The translations under genes and the position numbers were made by a program. The notes under the pieces are model-generated. The model saw nothing but the letters and a program-made list of their open reading frames with translations. It was not told the origin of the DNA and ran no database searches. This document shows positions 2,794 to 22,176 of a stretch of DNA of 40,607 nucleotides, one piece after another (position 1 is the first letter of the stretch; every line of letters begins with the position of its first letter). The stretch is from a virus (Duplodnaviria; Heunggongvirae; Uroviricota; Caudoviricetes), in the IMG/VR virus record IMGVR_UViG_2675903253_000012, one strand, 5' to 3'.

Positions 2794-5386
2794 TTGCATA
2801 TTCCTTAGCCCAGCGGGGCAGTGATAACGTCTTAATAGCTGGCCATTCATCGGTATTGAGGCAGTCAGCCAGGGTTCGCAGATTGCGGTGATATTCCAGC
2901 TGACCTGCCAGTTTTGCTTCTTCGCCCATCATGAAAATTTCAACCGGATAACGTCCGCATTCAATAGTTGTGCTGGCAACCAGAAAAACGAAAGTTGGCT
3001 GCACTCCAAACTGTGCTTCATAACCGTCACTGTAGAATGCATCCTGAACGTGATAGCGGTAGTCGTAATAAGCGGTTTTGAATCGTTGAATATCCGCCGT
3101 AGTTTTCACGTCCATGATCCAGTGAAATTCAGGGATAATTTTGTCCGGACGGCACCGACACAAAATTGCTGTTTCAGGATCTTCCCAGTAAATTGATGAT
3201 TCAGCGTGTCCGGCGCTTTCAACAAGCCATTGCCCCAGCGGCAAAGCCATAACGCTCTGATACATGAGTTCAATTTTCCGGCCTTCTTCGGCAGTGATAA
3301 CCGTTTTTCCTGTGCTTGCGCATTCCCTCAGAAACGCTTTCTCTTCTTCTTTTCCGGAGTTTGTCCGGCGGTTAAATTCAGGTGCTACGATAAAGCGGTT
3401 ACTGAATTCTTCCGGCTCAAGTACCCGGCAGTGGAAAGCGGTTCCTAAATCGAGCGTTTTTGTCTTTGTGGTGTCCACGGGGGCATTTTTACGCCACAAA
3501 TACAGTGCCGGAGTATCAGCAATGTCATCGAGCTGAGACTTACTGACACCGGGACCCGCGTGGTAATTCTCATTCGAAATTCCGTAATAAATACCTGGCT
3601 CTATGTCTTCTACGATTACGGGATCTGCGACTTCGCCAGTTTCATCACTGCAATCGCGATGCGGATCGCTGCCAGCATTCTCATTGTGCGGATGTTCAGC
3701 GCCTTCCATTTCCTCCGGATCATTTTCCTTAGCTTCAACCTGACTCTCTTCATCGAATGTTTCCTGGTATGTTGCGTCGCCCATCACCGCACCACAGTCA
3801 GGGCAGTTATCCCCGCCAGTCTGGCCGCAGGCATTGCAGGCTATTTCCGGTTCCTGTTGCACTACTGGCTCAGGTTGATTCATATCCGGGCTGGTTTTTT
3901 CCGTTTCTGGCTGGTTCTGGTACACACAATCGCGAGTCTGGATCCCCTTTACCCATTTCGGATCGTTCGGGTCGCTAATTCCGTCAACAAATTCACCACG
4001 TGATGCAGCAAGCAATTTATCGGCATCGACAGGATTTTTTGATGGAATGTTTTTCCGGGCTTCATGGAGTTCTGCCCGCAGTTCCTGATATTTCGCATCA
4101 ACAGAATTTACCTGTGACTGAGCATCCAGCGGCTGCGTGTCCTGATGATGTTCAGTTGCGTCCGGTTCCATTGTTTCAGCCTCTCCCTGTTCAACTGCCG
4201 TTGTTCCAGATGGTTGCGGTTTTTCTTCATCATCCTGTTTTCCTTCTTCTGTTACTCGCTGCGGCATCGGGGCAGAGGAGCGACCGCAGGCAATATCCAC
4301 GATTTCCGGATCAGGGTTGGCATGATCGGTTTCAGTCAGTACTTTGTTCAGATATTCAGTGACGTGCGCGGGGATGACCTCGATCCCAATTGGTGCTTCT
4401 TTTACGGACGCAACCACGATGGCGCGGGAATAATCCAGCCCGCCAGGCATGGTGATGAATTTGTCGCGGAAAACAGAAAAGGGCGGTTTATTTTCAGCGA
4501 TAATTTCCTCAATGCGTTTAGCGTGTGCCGGATGAAGGTTATAGATGTCCAGATCCATTGAACGGGCCAGTACGCCAGTGGCTACGTCCCGCGCCAGTGA
4601 CGTCAGATCGTGTACGAAACCTTCGCCGCGATCGGTGAGGTTTCCGCCGCCAGCATTAGCACCGGAAGCCGTGCGAGTGATGTGTGAAACACGATTACCC
4701 TTCATCCACTCTTTTGTCAGCAGTCCTCGATCGGTGTAGTCAGCGTTCAGGTATGCTTCGAAAAAAGCAGTTATCAGTCCCAGGTTTGAATTACCAGGAT
4801 TAGGGAAAACTTTGTCAGTGTCACGAACCAGTTTGTGGAGTTCGCGAATTTCCAGCGGGTCGAGCAGGCTGGTTTTGTGGGAAACAGCCAGGGCAGTAAC
4901 AGCCGGTAGTTCTTCAGCCCGAGCAATGTGTAATGCCTGGAGTCCGTCGCGTGAAACGTGCGTTACCGGTTTTTCGCTGCCGTGTTGAGCAAGCCAACGA
5001 ATGGGCAGTTCCTGGCCAGAAATTGGGAGTAGCATATTCTCCTCAATCTCAGTCATGTCTTCGCCGTTGACGTTGGTATTGCCTTGATAGTGAGCGTTGT
5101 CTGGTGCTGCTCCCGGTTTTAGTTCCCATGTCATGGAGTCTTTGCTGAGTTGATAGCGTTCACTCCAGGTAAAATCGATCTCACCTTCAGCGGGCAGGTC
5201 ATTAACGACAGGAAAATTCGTGGCAACAGCTTTAAAATAGCTGCTCAGTTTTTTACCTGACTTAACGATCAGGTAGTCCAGAGTGGCACAGGTCGATTCA
5301 AAATCGTTGCTTGCCCACAGGACGACGTCAGGTTCACCGGATGATTTTTTCGCTTTCCGTAACAGGAAGAGTGGTTTTGTGCTCAT
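2786..5386 (-). CDS. recE: Exodeoxyribonuclease VIII RecE, 866 aa
   Basis: 866-aa ORF; acidic central region and C-terminal nuclease domain; matches recalled RecE; recE-recT operon arrangement. Confidence 0.95.
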
Positions 5387-6670: not shown

Positions 6671-7159
6671 ATGTTGGATGTATTTACTCCATTGTTGAAA
6701 CTTTTTGCTAACGAGCCACTCGAAATACTTATGTATACGATTATCATTTTTGGTCTCACTCTCTGGCTGATACCGAAAGAGTTTACTGTCGCATTCAATG
6801 CTTATACTGAAATACCTTGGCTCTTTCAGATTATCGTTTTTGCCTTTTCTTTCGTGGTCGCCATTTCCTTCTCAAGATTGCGAGCACATATTCAAAAGCA
6901 TTATTCATTACTACCAGAGCAACGAGTATTGCTTCGTTTATCTGAGAAAGAAATCGCTGTATTTAAAGATTTCCTTAAAACAGGAAATCTTATTATCACT
7001 TCTCCTTGCCGTAACCCGGTTATGAAAAAATTAGAACGGAAGGGCATCATTCAACATCAGAGTGATAGCGCAAACTGTTCTTATTATCTCGTCACCGAAA
7101 AATACTCCCATTTTATGAAGTTATTCTGGAACAGCAGGAGTAGACGTTTTAATCGTTAG
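6671..7159 (+). CDS. sieB: Superinfection exclusion protein B (SieB), 162 aa, membrane protein
   Basis: MLDVFTPLLKLFANEPLEILMYTIIIFGLTLWLIPKEF... with two hydrophobic TM segments; matches recalled SieB; start at internal Met of the 203-aa ORF. Confidence 0.85.
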   Translation: MLDVFTPLLKLFANEPLEILMYTIIIFGLTLWLIPKEFTVAFNAYTEIPWLFQIIVFAFSFVVAISFSRLRAHIQKHYSLLPEQRVLLRLSEKEIAVFKDFLKTGNLIITSPCRNPVMKKLERKGIIQHQSDSANCSYYLVTEKYSHFMKLFWNSRSRRFNR

Positions 7160-7311
7160 CTTACTGTGTGCTTCTCCAACCATCGGCGCGCACCAGTTTC
7201 GGTTTTAAATGTTTTGCTTTTGGTATACGTCATGGCAGTGAACGTTCCATCCTGGTTGGGGAACACGCCGCACACCAGGGATTCGTTGTTGCCGAGGTCG
7301 ATTTTTTGCAT
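7156..7311 (-). CDS. ydaF: YdaF-like small protein (DUF1391), 51 aa
   Basis: Hand translation MQKIDLGNNESLVCGVFPNQDGTFTAMTYTKSKTFKTETGARRWLEKHTVS*; convergent 4-nt overlap with sieB stop; conserved Rac position. Confidence 0.55.
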   Translation of the reverse strand: MQKIDLGNNESLVCGVFPNQDGTFTAMTYTKSKTFKTETGARRWLEKHTVS

Positions 7312-7321
7312 TTTGCGAATC

Positions 7322-7456
7322 TCACATCTTGTTGCTGTGTATAGCGACTTCTGCCTGCCAGAGATCCCAGTCGTTGCTGCGTAAAGCCTGCACAGCCTGG
7401 TTGTAAGTGATACCGCAACAATCCATCAAATACTGAACTACTTCGTAATGCACCAT
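7322..7456 (-). CDS. ydaG: YdaG-like small protein, 44 aa
   Basis: MVHYEVVQYLMDCCGITYNQAVQALRSNDWDLWQAEVAIHSNKM within the 60-aa ORF; conserved Rac position. Confidence 0.6.
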   Translation of the reverse strand: MVHYEVVQYLMDCCGITYNQAVQALRSNDWDLWQAEVAIHSNKM

Positions 7457-7614
7457 CTTATCTCTCCCCTTAACGCCGGGTGGCGGAACTGAAACCTGCT
7501 GCACTGCAAAATCTGAACCCTGCCGTCATGTTCATACGCCTCGGGCTGGCTACTTAACCCCTGACCACTGCCTGGTAACTCGAAGTATTGCCCTGCGTTC
7601 TGTGGGGCGGGGTG

Positions 7615-7680
7615 GGTTGGTAGGTATATAATGTACTTTGTGTTCATTGATGTAAAGTACTATAAGTACATTTTGTGTGT
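7615..7680. promoter_or_regulatory. Putative early-left promoter/operator region with repeated GTACT/AGTACT motifs
   Basis: Sequence tatataatgtactttgtgttcattgatgtaaagtactataagtacattttgtgtg contains several GTAC-centred repeats and, on the minus strand, a TTTACA-17bp-CATTAT promoter-like pair; lies between racR 3' end and the leftward ydaG-kilR-recET genes. Confidence 0.3.
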
Positions 7681-7746
7681 AAAAAAATGAGATGGGATAA
7701 AGTGAAGCACAAACCCGGAGGGGGACGCTACCGGATTTATGCTGGT

Positions 7747-8184
7747 TTAAGAGGCTTTTTGTTTTTTCTTTCGTGCTAGCTCTTCGTAAATTGCATTGTA
7801 CTTCTGTTTTTTCTCCTCAAGAGTTTTTAAAAGTTCATCTGTCTCACTGTCAGGGAGCTCGTCCAGAAGGTCAATGATGATTTTTTGTCTTGGATTTAAC
7901 TCCTGATAGAAACGTACCTGTCCACTTTCTTCTGTATCCTCTCCCAAAAGATAGGTTGGTGTTGTTCCAATGAGTGTTGCTAATTCCCTTAATTTCTCTC
8001 GGCGAGGAATTGTTTCGCCATTAAACCATTTGCTAACCGCTTTTGGTGTTAATTTCATTCGACGGGCAATTTCTGCCTGCCTTCCATGTTGTTCATAACC
8101 AGCGTTTTCACAGGCTAGCGCAAGCCTACTGGCGAACTCTTTACGCGCTTTATCTTCATGAACCATAAGTTCAATGATATTCAC
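7747..8184 (-). CDS. racR: Prophage repressor RacR-like (XRE/Cro-CI family HTH), 145 aa
   Basis: HTH-like segment QAEIARRMKLTPKAVSKWFNGETIP; divergent from ydaS/ydaT as in Rac. Confidence 0.85.
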   Translation of the reverse strand: MNIIELMVHEDKARKEFASRLALACENAGYEQHGRQAEIARRMKLTPKAVSKWFNGETIPRREKLRELATLIGTTPTYLLGEDTEESGQVRFYQELNPRQKIIIDLLDELPDSETDELLKTLEEKKQKYNAIYEELARKKKQKAS

Positions 8185-8245
8185 TCTTGAATGTACTGTC
8201 AGTTCTGTTATAGCATGTACTCAAAGTTCACATTGTGAGGGTGAT
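8185..8245. promoter_or_regulatory. Divergent racR / ydaS intergenic control region (candidate operators, repeated ATGTACT)
   Basis: 61-bp divergent intergenic region containing gaATGTACTgtcag and gcATGTACTcaaag repeats; a Shine-Dalgarno-like gaggg precedes the ydaS ATG. Confidence 0.4.
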
Positions 8246-8500
8246 ATGAACCAGAAAACACTTGAAGATGTAATCAAAACTGTTCGCGTTTCTGTTGTGG
8301 CCGACGTTTGTGGTGTCAGCCAAAGAGCAATCTACAAATGGATGGATAACGGAAAATTGCCTCGCACAGAATATACCGGCGAAACAAATTACGCTGAAAA
8401 AATCGCTCATGCATCAAACGGATTATTTTCTGCTGATGTAATTTTAACTATTGGCAGAAATAAAACTACTACGAAAAAGCTGATGGGAGTTGATTCATGA
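8246..8500 (+). CDS. ydaS: YdaS-like Cro/HTH-type protein (toxic when derepressed in Rac)
   Basis: MNQKTLEDVIKTVRVSVVADVCGVSQRAIYKWMDNGKLP (HTH); start at ATG with gaggg Shine-Dalgarno; divergent from racR. Confidence 0.75.
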   Translation: MNQKTLEDVIKTVRVSVVADVCGVSQRAIYKWMDNGKLPRTEYTGETNYAEKIAHASNGLFSADVILTIGRNKTTTKKLMGVDS

Positions 8501-8919
8501 AAATCAAGCATGAGCACATCGAGTCAGTGTTGTTAGCCCTGGCAGCCGAAAAAGGGCAGGCATGGGTAGCCAATGCCATTACTGAAGAATATCTGCGCCA
8601 GGGGGGCGGCGAATTGCCCCTGGTACCAGGCAAGGACTGGAATAATCAGCAGAATATCTATCACCGTTGGTTGAAAGGTGAAACGAAAACGCAAAGAGAA
8701 AAAATTCAGAAGCTGATCCCAGCAATTCTGGCAATCCTTCCGCGCGAGCTGCGTCACCGACTCTGCATCTTCGATACCCTGGAACGCCGTGCATTACTGG
8801 CGGCGCAGGAAGCGTTAAGTACGGCAATTGATGCGCATGATGATGCAGTCCAAGCCGTTTACCGGAAAGCGCATTTCAGCGGCGGCGGGTCTTCCGACGA
8901 TTCTGTCATTGTTCATTAA
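8497..8919 (+). CDS. ydaT: YdaT-like protein (Rac toxin partner of YdaS), 140 aa
   Basis: ORF overlapping ydaS stop (ATGA); recalled similarity to YdaT. Confidence 0.8.
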   Translation: MKIKHEHIESVLLALAAEKGQAWVANAITEEYLRQGGGELPLVPGKDWNNQQNIYHRWLKGETKTQREKIQKLIPAILAILPRELRHRLCIFDTLERRALLAAQEALSTAIDAHDDAVQAVYRKAHFSGGGSSDDSVIVH

Positions 8920-16308: not shown

Positions 16309-16598
16309 TGGTGAATTTACGTAAAGCGGCTAAAGGCCAGATGTGCCAGATCAGAATCCCTGGCTACTGCAATCACAATCCCGAAACCTCTGTGCTGGCG
16401 CATTACAGGCTGGCGGGGACGTGCGGAACAGCGACAAAACCACATGATATGCAGGCGGCGATAGCCTGTAGCTCATGCCACGATCTAATCGACGGGCGGG
16501 TAAAAACCAGCGATTACACCAAAGAAGAATTGCGCCTGATGCATGCTGAAGGGGTTTTTCGCACACAAGAAATCTGGAGAAAGAAAGGTCATTTATGA
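16308..16598 (+). CDS. nin-region protein, DUF1364 (YbcO-like, Cys/His-rich putative nuclease)
   Basis: 96-aa ORF MVNLRKAAKGQMCQIRIPGYC...CSSCHDLIDGR with conserved Cys/His; ATGA overlap with upstream gene. Confidence 0.65.
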   Translation: MVNLRKAAKGQMCQIRIPGYCNHNPETSVLAHYRLAGTCGTATKPHDMQAAIACSSCHDLIDGRVKTSDYTKEELRLMHAEGVFRTQEIWRKKGHL

Positions 16599-17137
16599 TT
16601 TACCCAACGAATACAGGAAAAAGCGGAGAACACCTTCGCCTCACCACGCTGGAAAGTGTCTGGATTCAGGGAAAACTACGTATGTGGGGGCGCTGGTCGT
16701 ATATTGGCGGTGGCAGGTCAGGGAATATGTTCAATCAGTTGTTGGCATCCAAAAAACTGACGAAAACAGCCATTAATGAAGCCCTGCGCAGAATGAAAAA
16801 AGCGGGAATAGAGAAAGCTGAGCTGGAAGCGTTTTTGCGAGAGATGATCAACGGCAAGCAAAAGAGCTGGCTGGCGCATTGTACTGATGCAGAGGCGTTA
16901 TGTATTGATCGAGTCATAAGTGAGGTGCTGGCAGAGCATCCAGGATTGATTTGCATTCTCCGGCAACGCTATGAAGGGCGGGGGATGACTAAGCGCAAAA
17001 TGGCTGAATTGCTAAATGATGCACACCCAGAGTGGTGTTTTAGCACATGCGAAAAACGGATTGCTAATTGGTTAGCTGTTGCTGAGTATGCCCTATATAT
17101 TCCCATGCGTGAATCATTTGCTGAGAAAATGGCTTGA
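16595..17137 (+). CDS. Putative late-gene antiterminator (Q-like), assigned mainly by position
   Basis: 180-aa ORF immediately upstream of a strong intrinsic terminator and the lysis cassette, the canonical position of lambdoid Q; not lambda-Q-like in sequence as far as I can tell. Confidence 0.55.
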   Translation: MIYPTNTGKSGEHLRLTTLESVWIQGKLRMWGRWSYIGGGRSGNMFNQLLASKKLTKTAINEALRRMKKAGIEKAELEAFLREMINGKQKSWLAHCTDAEALCIDRVISEVLAEHPGLICILRQRYEGRGMTKRKMAELLNDAHPEWCFSTCEKRIANWLAVAEYALYIPMRESFAEKMA

Positions 17138-17214: not shown

Positions 17215-17244
17215 CGTAAAAAAACCGCTTAATGCGGTTTTTTT
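17215..17244 (+). terminator. Intrinsic terminator (tR'-like) downstream of the Q-like gene
   Basis: aaaaaaaccgc-ttaat-gcggttttttt: 7-bp GC-containing stem, 5-nt loop, U-run; flanked by A-run. Confidence 0.8.
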
Positions 17245-17564
17245 ACGTCAGGAAAGCAGGGGAGAATGCTGCTAGTTGGGCAACTGGTCTTTCTGCTCCA
17301 AATTATAACAGAGACCAGTTATAGTTTCGGTGCTGTGTTTTTTTTACAATATTGTGATAACACATTGCTGGCGGGAGTTTTGATATTTCTTGGCAGGGGC
17401 TGATGATGCGTTATCCTGATGTCGTCAACTCATATAAAATGAGATGAGAGATCATTGCAGGGTGGTTTGTAATTCGCTGTTTAGCGGGACAATATGTTGT
17501 CTGATACAAGACACCCGACGCCTCAGATTACTATAATAAAGACGAAGCATCCTTTGTATTGACC

Positions 17565-17590
17565 AACCGCCTGTTTAGGCGGTTCTTTTT
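17565..17590 (+). terminator. Second intrinsic terminator in the late leader
   Basis: aaccgcct-gttt-aggcggtt followed by cttttt. Confidence 0.6.
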
Positions 17591-18122
17591 GGGCTGGTTT
17601 ATTGTATGCCAAATGATTATTAAAAAGGTTGTGTTAATAACAAGATCCGAAATAATATGCCTGCATATTTTTATCTTGCTTATATTCTGCATATTGTGCA
17701 TAGCAGGCTCATCCCTGCAATCAAAACTGTATGATGAGTATTTTTTGTTTTCCTTTTTTCCAGTCATCTGATGATGACCTGCTTCTTTTTAATCCGGATC
17801 GACATCAGTTTTTTAAGATAATTCCTGCGAGTTATATGCATAAATGCCACAAACTCCGCATTTTATGTGGTTGGGAGTTGCCGGGCGCGCAGTGAGTTTG
17901 CTAAGAAAACTCCTGCATGGTGAATCCCCCTGTGCGGTGGGGTGATACCATTAACCTTTTCTGTCGCCGACAGGTATCACGAACATTTTGTTCACCGGGA
18001 GGCACCCGGCACCATGCACTTCAATAGATTCTCTCCACATTATGGATATTCTTTCAGAATATCCCACGCAGACTTTGTGTAAATGTTAACAAATGTGCGT
18101 TTTATTTGATCTGATTCGCTGT

Positions 18123-18152
18123 TTGAGCGTCCAAAACAACGGTATATATAAT
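18123..18152 (+). promoter_or_regulatory. Candidate sigma70 promoter for the first TolA-like lipoprotein gene
   Basis: TTGAGC (18123-18128), 18-bp spacer, TATAAT (18147-18152); gaggaaaa Shine-Dalgarno before ATG 18182. Confidence 0.45.
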
Positions 18153-18181
18153 CCTTTACTATATGACATATGTGAGGAAAA

Positions 18182-18610
18182 ATGGGTTTTCGTAGCGCAT
18201 CAATTCTTACGTTGATTATTAGTGGGATTATTATCGGGTGCACTGATGCTGTATCGACAAATTATCATGACCGTACATCATATTACTCCGATAAAGCAAT
18301 AGAGACACAGTATGTGAGTTCATCTGAACGTACTTCTGATGTTAGTGAGGATATCCGTCTGTATGCCCATCAAATCAAGAGCGCCATCGAAAAACAGTTC
18401 GGGGATGCGAGTAAGTATTCAGGAAAAGAGTGTACACTGAGAATGCATATGGCCCCGAATGGCCTTCTACTGGAGGTTAAAAGAGAAAGTGGAGACCTCG
18501 ATTTATGTCGTGAAGCGATGAATGCGATAAAGAATGCTGATATACCTGCCCCCCCTTCGCCGGAAGTATATAAAGTATTTCAAAATGGGGTGCTGGATTT
18601 TAAACCCTGA
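18182..18610 (+). CDS. Lipoprotein with TolA C-terminal (domain III)-like domain, cargo gene 1
   Basis: Signal peptide plus lipobox IIGC; C-terminal YAHQIKSAIEKQFGDASKYSGKECTLRMHMAPNGLLLEVKRESGDLDLCREAMNAIKNADIPAPPSPEVYKVFQNGVLDFKP closely parallels the recalled C-terminus of E. coli TolA. Confidence 0.75.
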   Translation: MGFRSASILTLIISGIIIGCTDAVSTNYHDRTSYYSDKAIETQYVSSSERTSDVSEDIRLYAHQIKSAIEKQFGDASKYSGKECTLRMHMAPNGLLLEVKRESGDLDLCREAMNAIKNADIPAPPSPEVYKVFQNGVLDFKP

Positions 18611-18760
18611 TATTTATTGTTTTGTAATAAACGGTTTCGGCTTAGGTTTGTTCTGACACAGCTACGGCACTGAGCTAAATTTAGCGGATAGTCAGCTCTG
18701 AGCCAGTGGCGGACGTAACAACTACTATTGCTGAGATTTTAATGGATTGAGGAGCAAGAA

Positions 18761-19156
18761 GTGGGATTAAAGAAAATCGTTATGTTGACTTTTTGGGTCG
18801 GTTTTGTTGCGGGATGCACACCTTTACACCCTTCAGATTGCCACAAAACTACTGCTACAGGTAGTTGCAGTTCAGGACGCTGGGATGATCAGGATGAATG
18901 GGGGGCGCAAGCGCGGGGAATCAGAGCTGCAATTAATGCCAAACTTGATGAGCCGCATAACTGGAAAGGGAAAAAATGCAGGTTGCATATGGAATTCTCT
19001 CAGGATGGCACGGCGTTAAAAATATCTACCAGTAACGGTGATAAAGCCTATTGCGAAGCGATAAAGTCCGCAGCTCATAAAGCCAAATTTCCGGCCTTCA
19101 ACAATCCGGAAGTCTACAGAGATTTTCAGAAATCTGGCTTTGACATGCGAGGTTAG
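18761..19156 (+). CDS. Lipoprotein with TolA C-terminal-like domain, cargo gene 2 (paralogue of gene 1), GTG start
   Basis: Signal peptide plus lipobox VAGC; C-terminal CRLHMEFSQDGTALKISTSNGDKAYCEAIKSAAHKAKFPAFNNPEVYRDFQ shares the C...DG...C...PEVY..FQ pattern with gene 1 and TolA; gaggagcaa Shine-Dalgarno. Confidence 0.7.
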   Translation: MGLKKIVMLTFWVGFVAGCTPLHPSDCHKTTATGSCSSGRWDDQDEWGAQARGIRAAINAKLDEPHNWKGKKCRLHMEFSQDGTALKISTSNGDKAYCEAIKSAAHKAKFPAFNNPEVYRDFQKSGFDMRG

Positions 19157-19281
19157 CTCTTCAATTACTATATCTCATTCATAGCAAACTGACAGATTTG
19201 ATGATGTTCTATATACGAAACCTGTGATGTCAAGTCTGAGCTAATACAAATAAACATAATATCAGAGAAATACATTTTATT

Positions 19282-19304
19282 AGCTCGCTACGGCGAGCTT
19301 TTTA
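19282..19304 (+). terminator. Intrinsic terminator between the lipoprotein cargo genes and the holin
   Basis: agctcgc-tacg-gcgagct followed by ttttt. Confidence 0.65.
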
Positions 19305-19407
19305 TATTGCATCGTCTCCAGCATATATATCAATTAAGGCTCTGATTGATGTGTCTGAAAGCCTACACATAATAACTATGCCATCCGTTCCGTGCGGAGG
19401 TGAGGCT

Positions 19408-19623
19408 ATGAAATCCATGGACAAAATTTCAACAGGCATTGCCTACGGCACCTCCGCAGGCAGTGCTGGCTACTGGTTTTTACAGTTGCTCGATAGAGTA
19501 ACTCCGTCACAGTGGGCTGCAATCGGTGTGCTGGGTAGTCTGGTATTTGGCCTGCTGACGTACCTGACAAACCTTTATTTCAAGATTAAAGAAGATAAGC
19601 GCAAGGCTGCGAGAGGTGAATAA
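19408..19623 (+). CDS. Class II pinholin, S21-like (dual start MKSMDK; 71/68-aa antiholin/holin forms)
   Basis: [71 protein letters not shown] matches recalled phage 21 S protein. Confidence 0.9.
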
Positions 19624-20120
19624 TGCCTCCATCATTACGAAAAGTCGTTGCTGCTGCTATTGGTGGCGGAGCAATTGCTATAGCATCAGTGTTAATCACT
19701 GGCCCAAGTGGTAACGATGGTCTGGAAGGTGTCAGCTACATACCATACAAAGATATTGTTGGTGTATGGACTGTATGTCACGGGCATACAGGAAAAGACA
19801 TCATGCTCGGTAAAACGTATACCAAAGCAGAATGCAAAACACTCTTGAATAAAGACCTTGCCACTGTCGCCAGACAAATTAACCCGTACATCAAAGTCGA
19901 TATACCGGAAACAACGCGCTGCGCTCTTTACTCGTTCGTTTACAACGTGGGCGCTGGCAATTTCAGAACATCGACGCTTCTTCGCAAAATAAACCAGGGC
20001 GATATCAAAGGCGCATGTGACCAGCTACGTCGCTGGACATATGCTGGCGGTAAGCAATGGAAAGGTCTCATGACTCGTCGTGAGATTGAGCGTGAAATCT
20101 GTTTGTGGGGTCAGCAATGA
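19623..20120 (+). CDS. SAR endolysin (lysozyme with N-terminal signal-anchor-release domain), R21-like
   Basis: N-terminal Gly/Ala-rich weakly hydrophobic SAR segment [20 protein letters not shown]; lysozyme-like body; 1-nt overlap with holin stop. Confidence 0.9.
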
Positions 20121-20581
20121 ACAGAGTAACCGCGATTATCTCCGCTCTGGTTATCTGCATCATCGTCTGCCTGTCATGGGCTGTTAATCATTACCGTGAT
20201 AACGCCATTACCTACAAAGCCCAGCGCGACAAAAATGCCAGAGAACTGAAGCTGGCGAACGCGGCAATTACTGACATGCAGATGCGTCAGCGTGATGTTG
20301 CTGCGCTCGATGCAAAATACACGAAGGAGTTAGCTGATGCGAAAGCTGAAAATGATGCTCTGCGTGATGATGTTGCCGCTGGTCGTCGTCGGTTGCACAT
20401 CAAAGCAGTCTGTCAGTCAGTGCGTGAAGCCACCACCGCCTCCGGCGTGGATAATGCAACCAGCCCCCGACTGGCAGACACCGCTGAACGGGATTATTTC
20501 ACCCTCCGGGAACGACTGGTAATGATGCAGGCCCAACTTGAAGGTGCTCAGCAATACATAACCGAGCAGTGTTTAAAGTAA
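20117..20581 (+). CDS. Rz-like i-spanin
   Basis: N-terminal TM segment then coiled-coil-rich periplasmic domain; ATGA overlap with endolysin stop. Confidence 0.8.
20337..20522 (+). CDS. Rz1-like o-spanin lipoprotein embedded in the +1 frame of Rz
   Basis: Lipobox VVGC followed by Pro-rich segment PPPPPAW, nested entirely within Rz. Confidence 0.75.
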
Positions 20582-20718
20582 AATCTTAACTACAATATGA
20601 TTCATTTTGATGATTGTTTCATAAGGAACAGTGAAGTAAGATCTAAGAGGAGTTAAATTTTATACAGTATAATCATAATATTGCAGCAAGGTGGTTATAA
20701 TTGAAAGAATATTTAGAT

Positions 20719-22176
20719 ATGAATACATCTCATGTAAGAGTTGTTACTCATATGTGTGGGTTCCTGGTTTGGCTCTATAGTCTTTCAATGTTGCCACCAA
20801 TGGTTGTAGCATTGTTTTATAAAGAAAAAAGCCTGTTCGTTTTCTTTATAACTTTCGTTATATTTTTTTGCATTGGTGGCGGAGCGTGGTATACAACTAA
20901 GAAATCTGGCATTCAATTACGTACCCGTGATGGGTTTATTATAATTGTAATGTTTTGGATTTTGTTTTCTGTTATTAGTGCATTCCCTTTATGGATTGAC
21001 TCAGAACTTAATTTAACGTTCATTGATGCTCTGTTTGAAGGGGTTTCTGGAATAACAACAACAGGAGCAACTGTAATTGATGATGTTAGTTCATTACCTC
21101 GGGCATATTTGTACTATCGGTCACAGTTAAATTTTATAGGTGGTTTAGGAGTTATTGTTCTGGCGGTTGCAGTATTGCCATTATTGGGTATTGGTGGTGC
21201 AAAGCTTTATCAGTCAGAAATGCCGGGGCCATTTAAGGATGACAAACTCACTCCCCGCCTGGCCGATACGTCACGGACACTGTGGATAACTTATTCTTTA
21301 TTAGGTATTGCTTGTATTGTCTGTTATAGACTTGCAGGAATGCCTTTGTTTGATGCTATTTGTCACGGGATTTCCACAGTTTCGCTTGGTGGTTTCTCAA
21401 CTCATAGCGAGAGTATCGGATATTTTAATAACTATTTGGTTGAGCTGGTGGCTGGTTCTTTTTCCCTGCTATCGGCTTTCAACTTCACTCTTTGGTATAT
21501 TGTTATTAGCAGAAAAACGATAAAACCTTTAATCAGAGATATTGAACTTCGTTTCTTTCTGTTAATAGCCTTAGGGGTGATCATTGTTACCTCTTTCCAG
21601 GTCTGGCATATAGGTATGTATGACTTGCATGGAAGTTTTATTCATTCGTTTTTTCTTGCCAGCTCCATGCTCACTGATAATGGTTTAGCTACGCAGGATT
21701 ATGCAAACTGGCCCACGCACACGATAGTGTTTTTGCTGTTGTCAAGTTTCTTTGGGGGATGTATAGGTTCAACCTGTGGTGGAATTAAGTCACTTCGATT
21801 TCTTATACTTTTCAAACAAAGCAAACACGAGATAAATCAGCTTTCTCATCCCAGAGCGTTGTTGAGTGTAAATGTAGGAGGGAAGATAGTTACAGATCGT
21901 GTAATGAGGTCTGTATGGAGTTTCTTTTTTCTTTATACTCTCTTCACGGTGTTTTTTATACTGGTGTTAAATGGTATGGGATATGATTTTCTTACATCAT
22001 TTGCAACAGTGGCTGCATGTATTAATAATATGGGATTAGGTTTTGGGGCTACTGCATCGTCATTCGGAGTGCTTAATGACATTGCAAAATATTTAATGTG
22101 CATAGCTATGATTCTTGGTCGCCTTGAAATTTATCCTGTTATTATATTGTTTTCAGGTTTTTTTTGGCGCTCCTAA
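20719..22176 (+). CDS. trkG: Potassium uptake protein TrkG (TrkH family), 485 aa
   Basis: MNTSHVRVVTHMCGFLVWLYSLSMLPPMVVALFY... multi-pass membrane protein matching recalled TrkG; AT-rich; known Rac cargo. Confidence 0.93.
   Translation: MNTSHVRVVTHMCGFLVWLYSLSMLPPMVVALFYKEKSLFVFFITFVIFFCIGGGAWYTTKKSGIQLRTRDGFIIIVMFWILFSVISAFPLWIDSELNLTFIDALFEGVSGITTTGATVIDDVSSLPRAYLYYRSQLNFIGGLGVIVLAVAVLPLLGIGGAKLYQSEMPGPFKDDKLTPRLADTSRTLWITYSLLGIACIVCYRLAGMPLFDAICHGISTVSLGGFSTHSESIGYFNNYLVELVAGSFSLLSAFNFTLWYIVISRKTIKPLIRDIELRFFLLIALGVIIVTSFQVWHIGMYDLHGSFIHSFFLASSMLTDNGLATQDYANWPTHTIVFLLLSSFFGGCIGSTCGGIKSLRFLILFKQSKHEINQLSHPRALLSVNVGGKIVTDRVMRSVWSFFFLYTLFTVFFILVLNGMGYDFLTSFATVAACINNMGLGFGATASSFGVLNDIAKYLMCIAMILGRLEIYPVIILFSGFFWRS

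Follow-up and report, generated by a model that had tools for sequence, protein, structure and literature searches.

TolA domain III on paired prophage lipoproteins: possible periplasmic decoys for Tol-dependent colicins and filamentous phages

Domain III of Escherichia coli TolA (TolAIII) offers its ligands two strand edges. One is β2 (residues L375-P380), to which colicin A adds a strand while making cation-π contacts with K368, K379, and K396 (PMC3365938). The N1 domain of g3p, colicin N, and the TolB N-terminus instead add a strand to TolA β3 (residues A415-K420), and a single proline at TolA D418 or K420 abolishes binding (PMC4339652; PMC7391070). Here we describe two open reading frames, ORF1 and ORF2, that place this domain on small lipoproteins encoded by a tailed phage. 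They lie next to each other in a stretch of 40,607 nucleotides (IMG/VR record IMGVR_UViG_2675903253_000012, Caudoviricetes), hereafter the window.

Cor (phages phi80, N15, and mEp167) and Llp (phage T5), both of which act on FhuA, and TraT of F are outer-membrane lipoproteins that block the entry of competitors. TolAIII itself, expressed in the periplasm, reportedly makes cells both tolerant to group A colicins and leaky (a finding attributed to Levengood-Freyermuth et al. 1993, J Bacteriol 175:222). E. coli producing TolAIII fused to a signal sequence releases periplasmic protein (PMC6195910). Conversely, the g3p N1 domain, when placed in the periplasm, sequesters TolA, resulting in colicin A resistance and a 4-log fall in phage uptake (PMC10424213).

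ORF1 and ORF2 may represent a natural version of such interference: outer-membrane-tethered, non-energised competitors of TolAIII that make their carriers tolerant to Tol-dependent colicins and filamentous phages. This is the likeliest of the functions considered, and is put forward tentatively, with slightly less than even confidence. Perturbation of Tol-Pal may be a side effect, or may have a role in late lysis.

Two short lipoproteins with a TolA domain III

Both genes read along the strand presented and have a common plan:

18182..18610, plus strand: ORF1, a 142-residue lipoprotein with TolA domain III
18239..18241, plus strand: lipid-acceptor Cys20 of ORF1, following the signal peptide (residues 1-19) and preceding a Ser/Thr-rich disordered linker (residues 21-54)
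18344..18607, plus strand: TolAIII of ORF1 (residues 55-142)
18761..19156, plus strand: ORF2, a 131-residue lipoprotein with TolA domain III
18815..18817, plus strand: lipid-acceptor Cys19 of ORF2, following the signal peptide (residues 1-18) and opening the N-terminal segment (residues 19-44)
18893..19153, plus strand: TolAIII of ORF2 (residues 45-131)

There is hardly any room for doubt that the C-terminal 88 or so residues of both lipoproteins are TolA domain III. The TolA C-terminal family PF06519, whose gathering cut-off is 25 bits, matches ORF1 with 82.6 bits and ORF2 with 54.6 bits. In sequence comparison with the Protein Data Bank (PDB), residues 55-142 of ORF1 and 334-421 of E. coli TolA form a gap-free alignment (60% identity, E-value 5e-28), and ORF2 matches the solved E. 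coli TolAIII at about 31% identity (E-value 5e-9). AlphaFold models the domain in both proteins, a three-stranded β-sheet against helices, with a predicted local distance difference test score (pLDDT) near 90. For each model, E. coli TolAIII is the top match in a Foldseek search of the PDB: ORF1 superposes on 2x9a_B with a root-mean-square deviation of 0.6 Å over 88 residues, and ORF2 on 3qdp with 1.1 Å over 86 residues. The disulfide pair of TolA, C363/C388, corresponds to C84/C109 in ORF1 and C73/C98 in ORF2, and is invariant in the alignment. The G-D motif and the ...VY..F....LDF ending likewise are kept in both proteins.

These results bear out the initial annotation, which had read from the window two lipoprotein genes with IIGC and VAGC lipoboxes and a TolA-like C-terminus (Cys pair, DG, and LDF-type ending). 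It had named alignment and structure comparison with TolA domain III as a first check, and a lack of structural similarity as one ground for abandoning the idea. Hidden Markov models, sequence-to-PDB alignment, and fold comparison all find the similarity.

Neither protein is a full-length TolA. Full-length TolA comprises a domain I transmembrane anchor and a long helical domain II, has about 350-430 residues, and is encoded in a tolQRA-tolB-pal-cpoB cluster. In ORF1 and ORF2 a lipoprotein signal replaces domain I, domain II is absent, and the lengths are 142 and 131 residues. Membership in a tol-pal locus also is out, as ORF1 and ORF2 are flanked by a Q-like phage gene and by lysis genes. The full-length model NF007065 scores 107.8 for ORF1 and 53.7 for ORF2 against a cut-off of 213, with only the last ~95 model positions matched. 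TIGR02794 is passed by ORF1 alone (75.6 against 59.45), and only through its C-terminal part, which accounts for the "tolA" label in databases.

By sequence, ORF1 and ORF2 are bacterial lipoproteins of the Lgt/LspA/Lnt pathway: each N-terminus has a positive n-region, an uncharged hydrophobic core, and a lipobox closing in Cys. ORF1 has an intact frame that starts with ATG, with GAGG 5 nt upstream (signal peptide MGFRSASILTLIISGIIIGC, then T; lipobox IIGC, Thr at +2). ORF2 starts with GTG, has GGAG upstream, and cannot be longer because of an in-frame TAA at 18740 (signal peptide MGLKKIVMLTFWVGFVAGC, then T; lipobox VAGC, Thr at +2). All 16 relatives in an alignment have the lipid-acceptor Cys, and nearly all have the Gly at −1. 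Residues other than Asp at position +2 predict sorting to the outer membrane; with Thr at this position, both proteins are predicted to be sorted there. The first 40-50 residues of both AlphaFold models have pLDDT below 50.

Public annotation presents these genes differently. In RefSeq, the Prokaryotic Genome Annotation Pipeline (PGAP) reduces ORF1 to 18350..18610, an N-terminally truncated tolA pseudogene ("incomplete; missing N-terminus"), and starts ORF2 at an internal ATG within the signal peptide (18782..19156). Both lipoprotein signals consequently are missing from the public record. The pseudogene flag and the ORF2 start both arise artefactually, because a full-length TolA model was used for naming.

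Taken at face value, the PGAP flag and the C-terminal-only matches to NCBIfam TolA models would make ORF1 a decaying fragment of a captured tolA, and ORF2 a hitch-hiking reading frame. Such non-functional debris is scarcely credible. ORF1 has a complete frame, a ribosome-binding site, a signal peptide, and a lipobox. Relatives in different prophages, with 91% and 66% identity, keep its 142-residue architecture, and ORF1 itself is identical in 771 genomes. Compared with those two prophage relatives, the ratio of nonsynonymous to synonymous substitution rates (dN/dS, or omega) is 0.26-0.39 for ORF1 overall: 0.09-0.34 in the domain, and 0.40-0.78 in the signal peptide and linker. Debris would be recognised by common frameshifted or truncated copies and by dN/dS near 1; neither was seen. 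The pseudogene reading of ORF1 is rejected on these grounds: the frame is intact, the lipoprotein architecture is conserved, and dN/dS stays under 0.4. For ORF2, comparison with copies from a pO157-type plasmid, Enterobacter, and Serratia gives dN/dS of 0.06-0.14 at dS of 0.5-1.1. Both genes are intact and under purifying selection.

Ligand-binding edges

At the colicin A site, ORF1 has LLEVKR in place of L375-P380, and H89, K100, and K117 in place of K368, K379, and K396. The equivalent of the β3 strand reads GVLDFK in ORF1 and SGFDMR in ORF2, and is free of proline in both. Both ligand-binding edges, β2 and β3, are retained, and may accept partner strands.

A family of short TolAIII lipoproteins

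A profile search of 1.84 billion representative proteins (a library clustered at 50% identity) returned 589 matches. Lengths were checked in the top 149, of which 78 have 105-170 residues. A strict pattern finds a lipobox in at least 55 of these 78 short members; several more are evident by eye, and a few members have ordinary signal peptides. The short family keeps the TolAIII core and the edge-strand residues, including L417/D418/F419/K420. ORF1 and ORF2 are members of a large family of short lipoproteins that consist of TolAIII only.

Two Klebsiella plasmid contexts are distinctive. The 10-kb ColRNAI cloacin plasmids (CP043367.1, from K. pneumoniae, locus 3687..4420) encode a 123-residue lipoprotein TolAIII with lipobox LTAC. 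The gene adjoins the cloacin-immunity-lysis operon, and hundreds of Klebsiella plasmids match. Its stop codon overlaps the start codon of a gene for a 121-residue, Sec-secreted protein made up of a TonB C-terminal domain (PF03544, 42.5 bits). The two genes are a possible Tol-plus-Ton decoy pair. On a conjugative Klebsiella plasmid (NZ_CP069204.1, locus 4229..5258), a gene for a thioredoxin-fold (DsbA/TraF-like) protein directly precedes one for a 144-residue lipoprotein TolAIII; the former possibly assists specifically in forming the disulfide of the TolAIII Cys pair.

Separate histories of ORF1 and ORF2

The initial annotation had called the two genes paralogous. They are indeed homologous (E-value 2e-18), but only distantly so: they share 29% identity, have separate distributions, and relatives of ORF1 are found without ORF2. 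A tandem duplication was considered and rejected, given the low identity and the separate distributions.

Of 5426 complete E. coli genomes, 771 contain an identical 1.4-kb segment with the gene pair, and 1370 (about a quarter) have at least one copy that matches to some degree. At least 151 IMG/VR contigs carry the cassette; all the copies found there are near-identical and so bring no further diversity. The relatives of ORF1 at 91% and 66% identity, which keep the form of a 142-residue lipoprotein, stand alone in the interval between the Q gene and the holin gene (the Q-to-holin slot) of other prophages. There the Q gene is of PF03589 or DUF1133 type, and the slot can hold other cargo, for example a NanS-type esterase or an AraC-like regulator.

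ORF2 has its own range, as part of a cassette shared with plasmids:

18731..19160, plus strand: ORF2 cassette common to E. coli plasmids (87% DNA identity)

Related sequences occupy 526 places on E. coli plasmids, pO157-type plasmids included. In one of the latter (NZ_CP062772.1, locus 4815..5246) an ORF2 orthologue with 88% protein identity lies in the leading region, with psiB-psiA-hok before it and toxB after it, and has ATG where the window has the GTG start. Citrobacter, Enterobacter, Klebsiella, Raoultella, and Serratia encode proteins with 78-89% identity to ORF2. In Enterobacter and Serratia the gene stands alone on the chromosome. At one Serratia chromosomal locus (6957..8736), the ORF2 homologue adjoins GmrSD_N and HEPN (RiboL-PSP/MAE_28990) genes in a setting that resembles a defence island. 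ORF1 and ORF2 travel independently.

In the ORF2 family, the mature N-terminus shows a conserved pattern of its own: lipid-Cys-x7-Cys-x8/9-Cys plus a WDDQDEW motif (ORF2 residues 19-44, within 18761..18892; members P0168, P0171, P0180, and P0186). This family segment has omega of 0.01-0.10 and no confident AlphaFold structure. In ORF2 itself the segment (lipid Cys-x7-Cys-x8-Cys) is constrained as tightly as the domain.

These features raise the question of a different role, especially for ORF2: an envelope accessory lipoprotein, whose fold and Cys-x7-Cys-x8-Cys segment would bind a conserved host envelope partner instead of invader proteins and which would contribute to fitness or virulence, as do other prophage and plasmid lipoproteins such as Bor and TraT, without blocking import. 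The strong constraint on the whole of mature ORF2 across genera (omega 0.01-0.14, dS 0.5-1.1) would be explained in this way, as would its solitary chromosomal position in Enterobacter and Serratia and its identity of just 31% to E. coli TolAIII. On the other hand, no result points to a candidate partner, the family retains the edge strands of genuine TolAIII, and the plasmid and bacteriocin contexts suggest functions in competition. A role as envelope accessory is rather improbable.

The Q-to-holin slot and its transcription

The host element is a Rac-like lambdoid prophage, and the gene pair lies in its Q-to-holin slot, where the initial annotation had placed it. A Q-like antiterminator gene stands upstream, and P21-type holin, lysozyme, Rz, and Rz1 genes stand downstream:

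16595..17137, plus strand: Q-like late antiterminator (DUF1133/Phage_antitermQ; 356 bits to DUF1133, 26.1 bits to Phage_antitermQ), the left border of the slot
18123..18152, plus strand: putative σ70-like promoter upstream of ORF1, TTGAGC-18 nt-TATAAT (a 10/12 consensus match, which is weak evidence)
19282..19305, plus strand: intrinsic-terminator-like hairpin AGCTCGC-TACG-GCGAGCT (19282..19299) followed by TTTTTAT, in the interval between ORF2 and the holin gene (from a consensus scan only)
19351..20581, plus strand: lysis cassette, the right border of the slot
19351/19408..19623, plus strand: P21-type holin
19623..20120, plus strand: lysozyme
20105..20581, plus strand: Rz, with the embedded Rz1 lipoprotein at 20337..20522

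Further upstream are genes for DUF1367 and DUF1364 proteins. Directly after Rz/Rz1 comes trkG, for a potassium transporter (20701..22176), ahead of ynaK and the terminase genes, which is the layout of the Rac prophage. Here that layout includes an intact P21-type holin gene, and the lysozyme N-terminus resembles a signal-anchor-release segment. A scan of the slot for transfer RNA genes, as occur there in Stx phages, found none.

About 1 kb of non-coding DNA separates the Q-like gene from ORF1. It contains a match to the Rfam small RNA STnc100 (17885..18071, plus strand; 86.6 bits against a gathering cut-off of 47, over the full-length model). According to a 2026 preprint, STnc100 is a small RNA of prophages, related to PasD and usually located near Q genes. 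In phage mEp460_ev081 the same cassette lies behind a different Q gene, and the shared DNA begins near 17991, inside the STnc100 match. Related phages either have or lack the cassette while the genes on its two sides are conserved, as is characteristic of a moron. Its anatomy is moron-like: presence or absence among prophages with different Q genes, along with a terminator-like site after ORF2.

Two other elements lie in the non-coding interval. A hairpin with flanking A and T runs is found right after the Q-like gene (17219..17246). At 17508..17592, a strong terminator-like hairpin comes no more than 30 nt after a promoter-like AAGACA-18-TATAAT. Together these possibly are the late promoter and the Q-sensitive terminator.

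The initial annotation had assigned ORF1 its own promoter, in keeping with expression in the lysogen. The TTGAGC/TATAAT motif is present, but as a consensus match that is not conserved: the relative at 91% identity keeps the −35 element and has TGTAAT for −10, and the upstream region of the relative at 66% identity is unrelated. Moreover, 3.2 kb of this DNA holds 11 promoter-like sites, versus 6.5 ± 2.3 in shuffled sequences. With an unconserved promoter that may be no more than a chance match, lysogen expression is only putative. Transcripts can be expected with more confidence from read-through of the Q-dependent late promoter. Because the genes lie inside the Q-dependent late unit, lytic expression is at least as likely as lysogen expression.

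This arrangement suggests a second role, that of a late-gene helper of lysis or vesiculation, in which transcription mainly from the Q-dependent late promoter, along with holin, endolysin, and spanin, would supply a large amount of free TolAIII. By titrating the N-terminus of TolB, it would keep Pal from being mobilised, so that the outer membrane would weaken or release more vesicles as the lytic cycle ends. The genes are immediately upstream of the lysis cassette within the Q-to-holin unit, and the putative promoter of their own is weak. There also are physiological precedents: periplasm-targeted TolAIII makes E. coli leaky (PMC6195910), and tol mutants hypervesiculate (PMC7391070; PMC11032300). 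In addition, EDL933_2012, a gene of the EDL933 prophage CP-933O that has been linked to TolA, reportedly increases 32-fold after ciprofloxacin (PMC11125564); if it is a relative of ORF1, the rise would point to transcription that depends on induction. Several observations speak against a lysis role, however. Relatives of ORF2 occur on plasmids and chromosomes with no lysis genes nearby, and those of Klebsiella are linked to a bacteriocin operon and a decoy-like TonB_C gene rather than to lysis. The cassette already provides Rz/Rz1 spanins for the outer membrane, and many related prophages lyse without ORF1 and ORF2. A lysis helper is unlikely.

Decoys at an import hub

A model for import blocking by ORF1 and ORF2 would run as follows. 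After lipidation, the Lol system would sort the proteins to the inner leaflet of the outer membrane, displaying TolAIII there uncoupled from the TolQR motor. This surrogate would capture TolAIII ligands through β-strand addition. Colicins that depend on TolA (A, N, and relatives) would be held by their translocation domains as these come through the porin, and filamentous phages by the N1 domain of g3p. The TolB N-terminus would be bound as well, more weakly. Dead-end capture would stall import, so that the lysogen, or a plasmid host with relatives of ORF2, would tolerate Tol-dependent bacteriocins and filamentous phages. TolA binds colicin N at about 1 µM and TolB at about 40 µM (PMC4339652), so modest expression could be protective and yet spare Tol-Pal. 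With strong late expression under Q, TolB would be titrated as well, and the outer membrane would loosen.

The pili of F-type plasmids attract TolA-dependent filamentous phages. Decoy function is strengthened, we infer, by the retained binding edges, the relatives on F-type plasmids, and the Klebsiella pairing with TonB_C. The pairing at a bacteriocin operon and the carriage by F-type plasmids fit import blocking better than a role in lysis.

A number of points weigh against decoy function. Edge conservation is weak evidence for ligand binding, because β-strand addition barely constrains side chains. The putative promoter for lysogen expression is weak and not conserved, and the genes are in a late operon. 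No PADLOC match to known defence families was found for ORF1 or ORF2; Pfam and PHROG give TolA/TonB-type families only. The Enterobacter and Serratia copies of ORF2 have no obvious mobile context. Finally, identity between ORF2 and E. coli TolAIII is just 31%, yet copies from E. coli, Enterobacter, and Serratia are 84-88% identical to one another, and the Cys-rich N-terminal segment is strongly constrained. This pattern fits a conserved partner of its own better than mimicry of each host's TolA.

A broader hypothesis can be framed, which we hold with a shade more reserve than the function of the pair itself: that mobile elements of the Enterobacterales carry widespread "import-hub decoys". These would be outer-membrane-anchored TolAIII proteins on prophages, F-type plasmids (pO157 among them), and bacteriocin plasmids, accompanied on some Klebsiella plasmids by a secreted TonB_C. 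They would make the carrier broadly tolerant, whatever the receptor, to bacteriocins and phages that depend on Tol or Ton.

If ORF1 and ORF2 are decoys, a cell could become resistant in one step to entire classes of colicins and filamentous phages, with neither a receptor mutation nor a specific immunity protein. The carriers, in 1370 of the 5426 complete E. coli genomes, include the virulence plasmid of enterohaemorrhagic E. coli. The consequences would extend to bacteriocin and phage therapeutics, competition in the gut, and the diversification of Tol-dependent weapons. These proteins also would be natural, tuned versions of a laboratory tool, as periplasmic TolAIII is used to permeabilise E. 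coli.

Comparison with known systems

That these proteins contain a TolA domain is already known, in that databases name it. Both belong to PHROG 5772 (E-values 1e-62 and 7e-65), listed as "unknown function", and both carry the NCBI name [quoted passage not shown]; these are naming bins only. A full-text literature search for functional studies of phage or plasmid TolAIII-only proteins turned up passing annotations only. The new element would be a mobile-element envelope lipoprotein that excludes competitors by mimicry of a host domain.

The closest counterpart is E. coli TolA domain III itself (residues ~334-421; PDB 1TOL, 1S62, 2X9A, and 3QDP/3QDR). ORF1 and ORF2 have the same fold, the same disulfide, and the same β2 and β3 edges. 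They differ from TolA in lacking domain I, and with it coupling to TolQR, and domain II; a lipoprotein signal and a short linker stand in their place. They also are encoded in a prophage late region rather than in the tol-pal operon.

Laboratory constructs for periplasmic TolAIII (Levengood-Freyermuth et al. 1993; Wan and Baneyx 1998, used in PMC6195910) likewise provide free TolAIII uncoupled from the motor. Those proteins are soluble, overexpressed, and identical to the host domain, whereas ORF1 and ORF2 are predicted to be lipid-anchored, have diverged from it (to 60% and 31% identity), and presumably are made at controlled levels.

Cor, Llp, and TraT resemble ORF1 and ORF2 in being small lipoproteins from temperate phages or plasmids, for which an ability to halt incoming phages or colicins at the envelope has been either shown or proposed. 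They have no sequence kinship to ORF1 and ORF2, and they inactivate an outer-membrane receptor; the mode proposed here is mimicry of an import hub in the periplasm.

Periplasmic g3p N1 or full-length pIII, which underlies superinfection immunity by filamentous phages, blocks entry through the very interaction between TolAIII β3 and g3p N1 that is considered here. The two systems are mirror images: in the one, a phage ligand saturates the TolA of the host; in the other, a copy of TolA would saturate the ligand.

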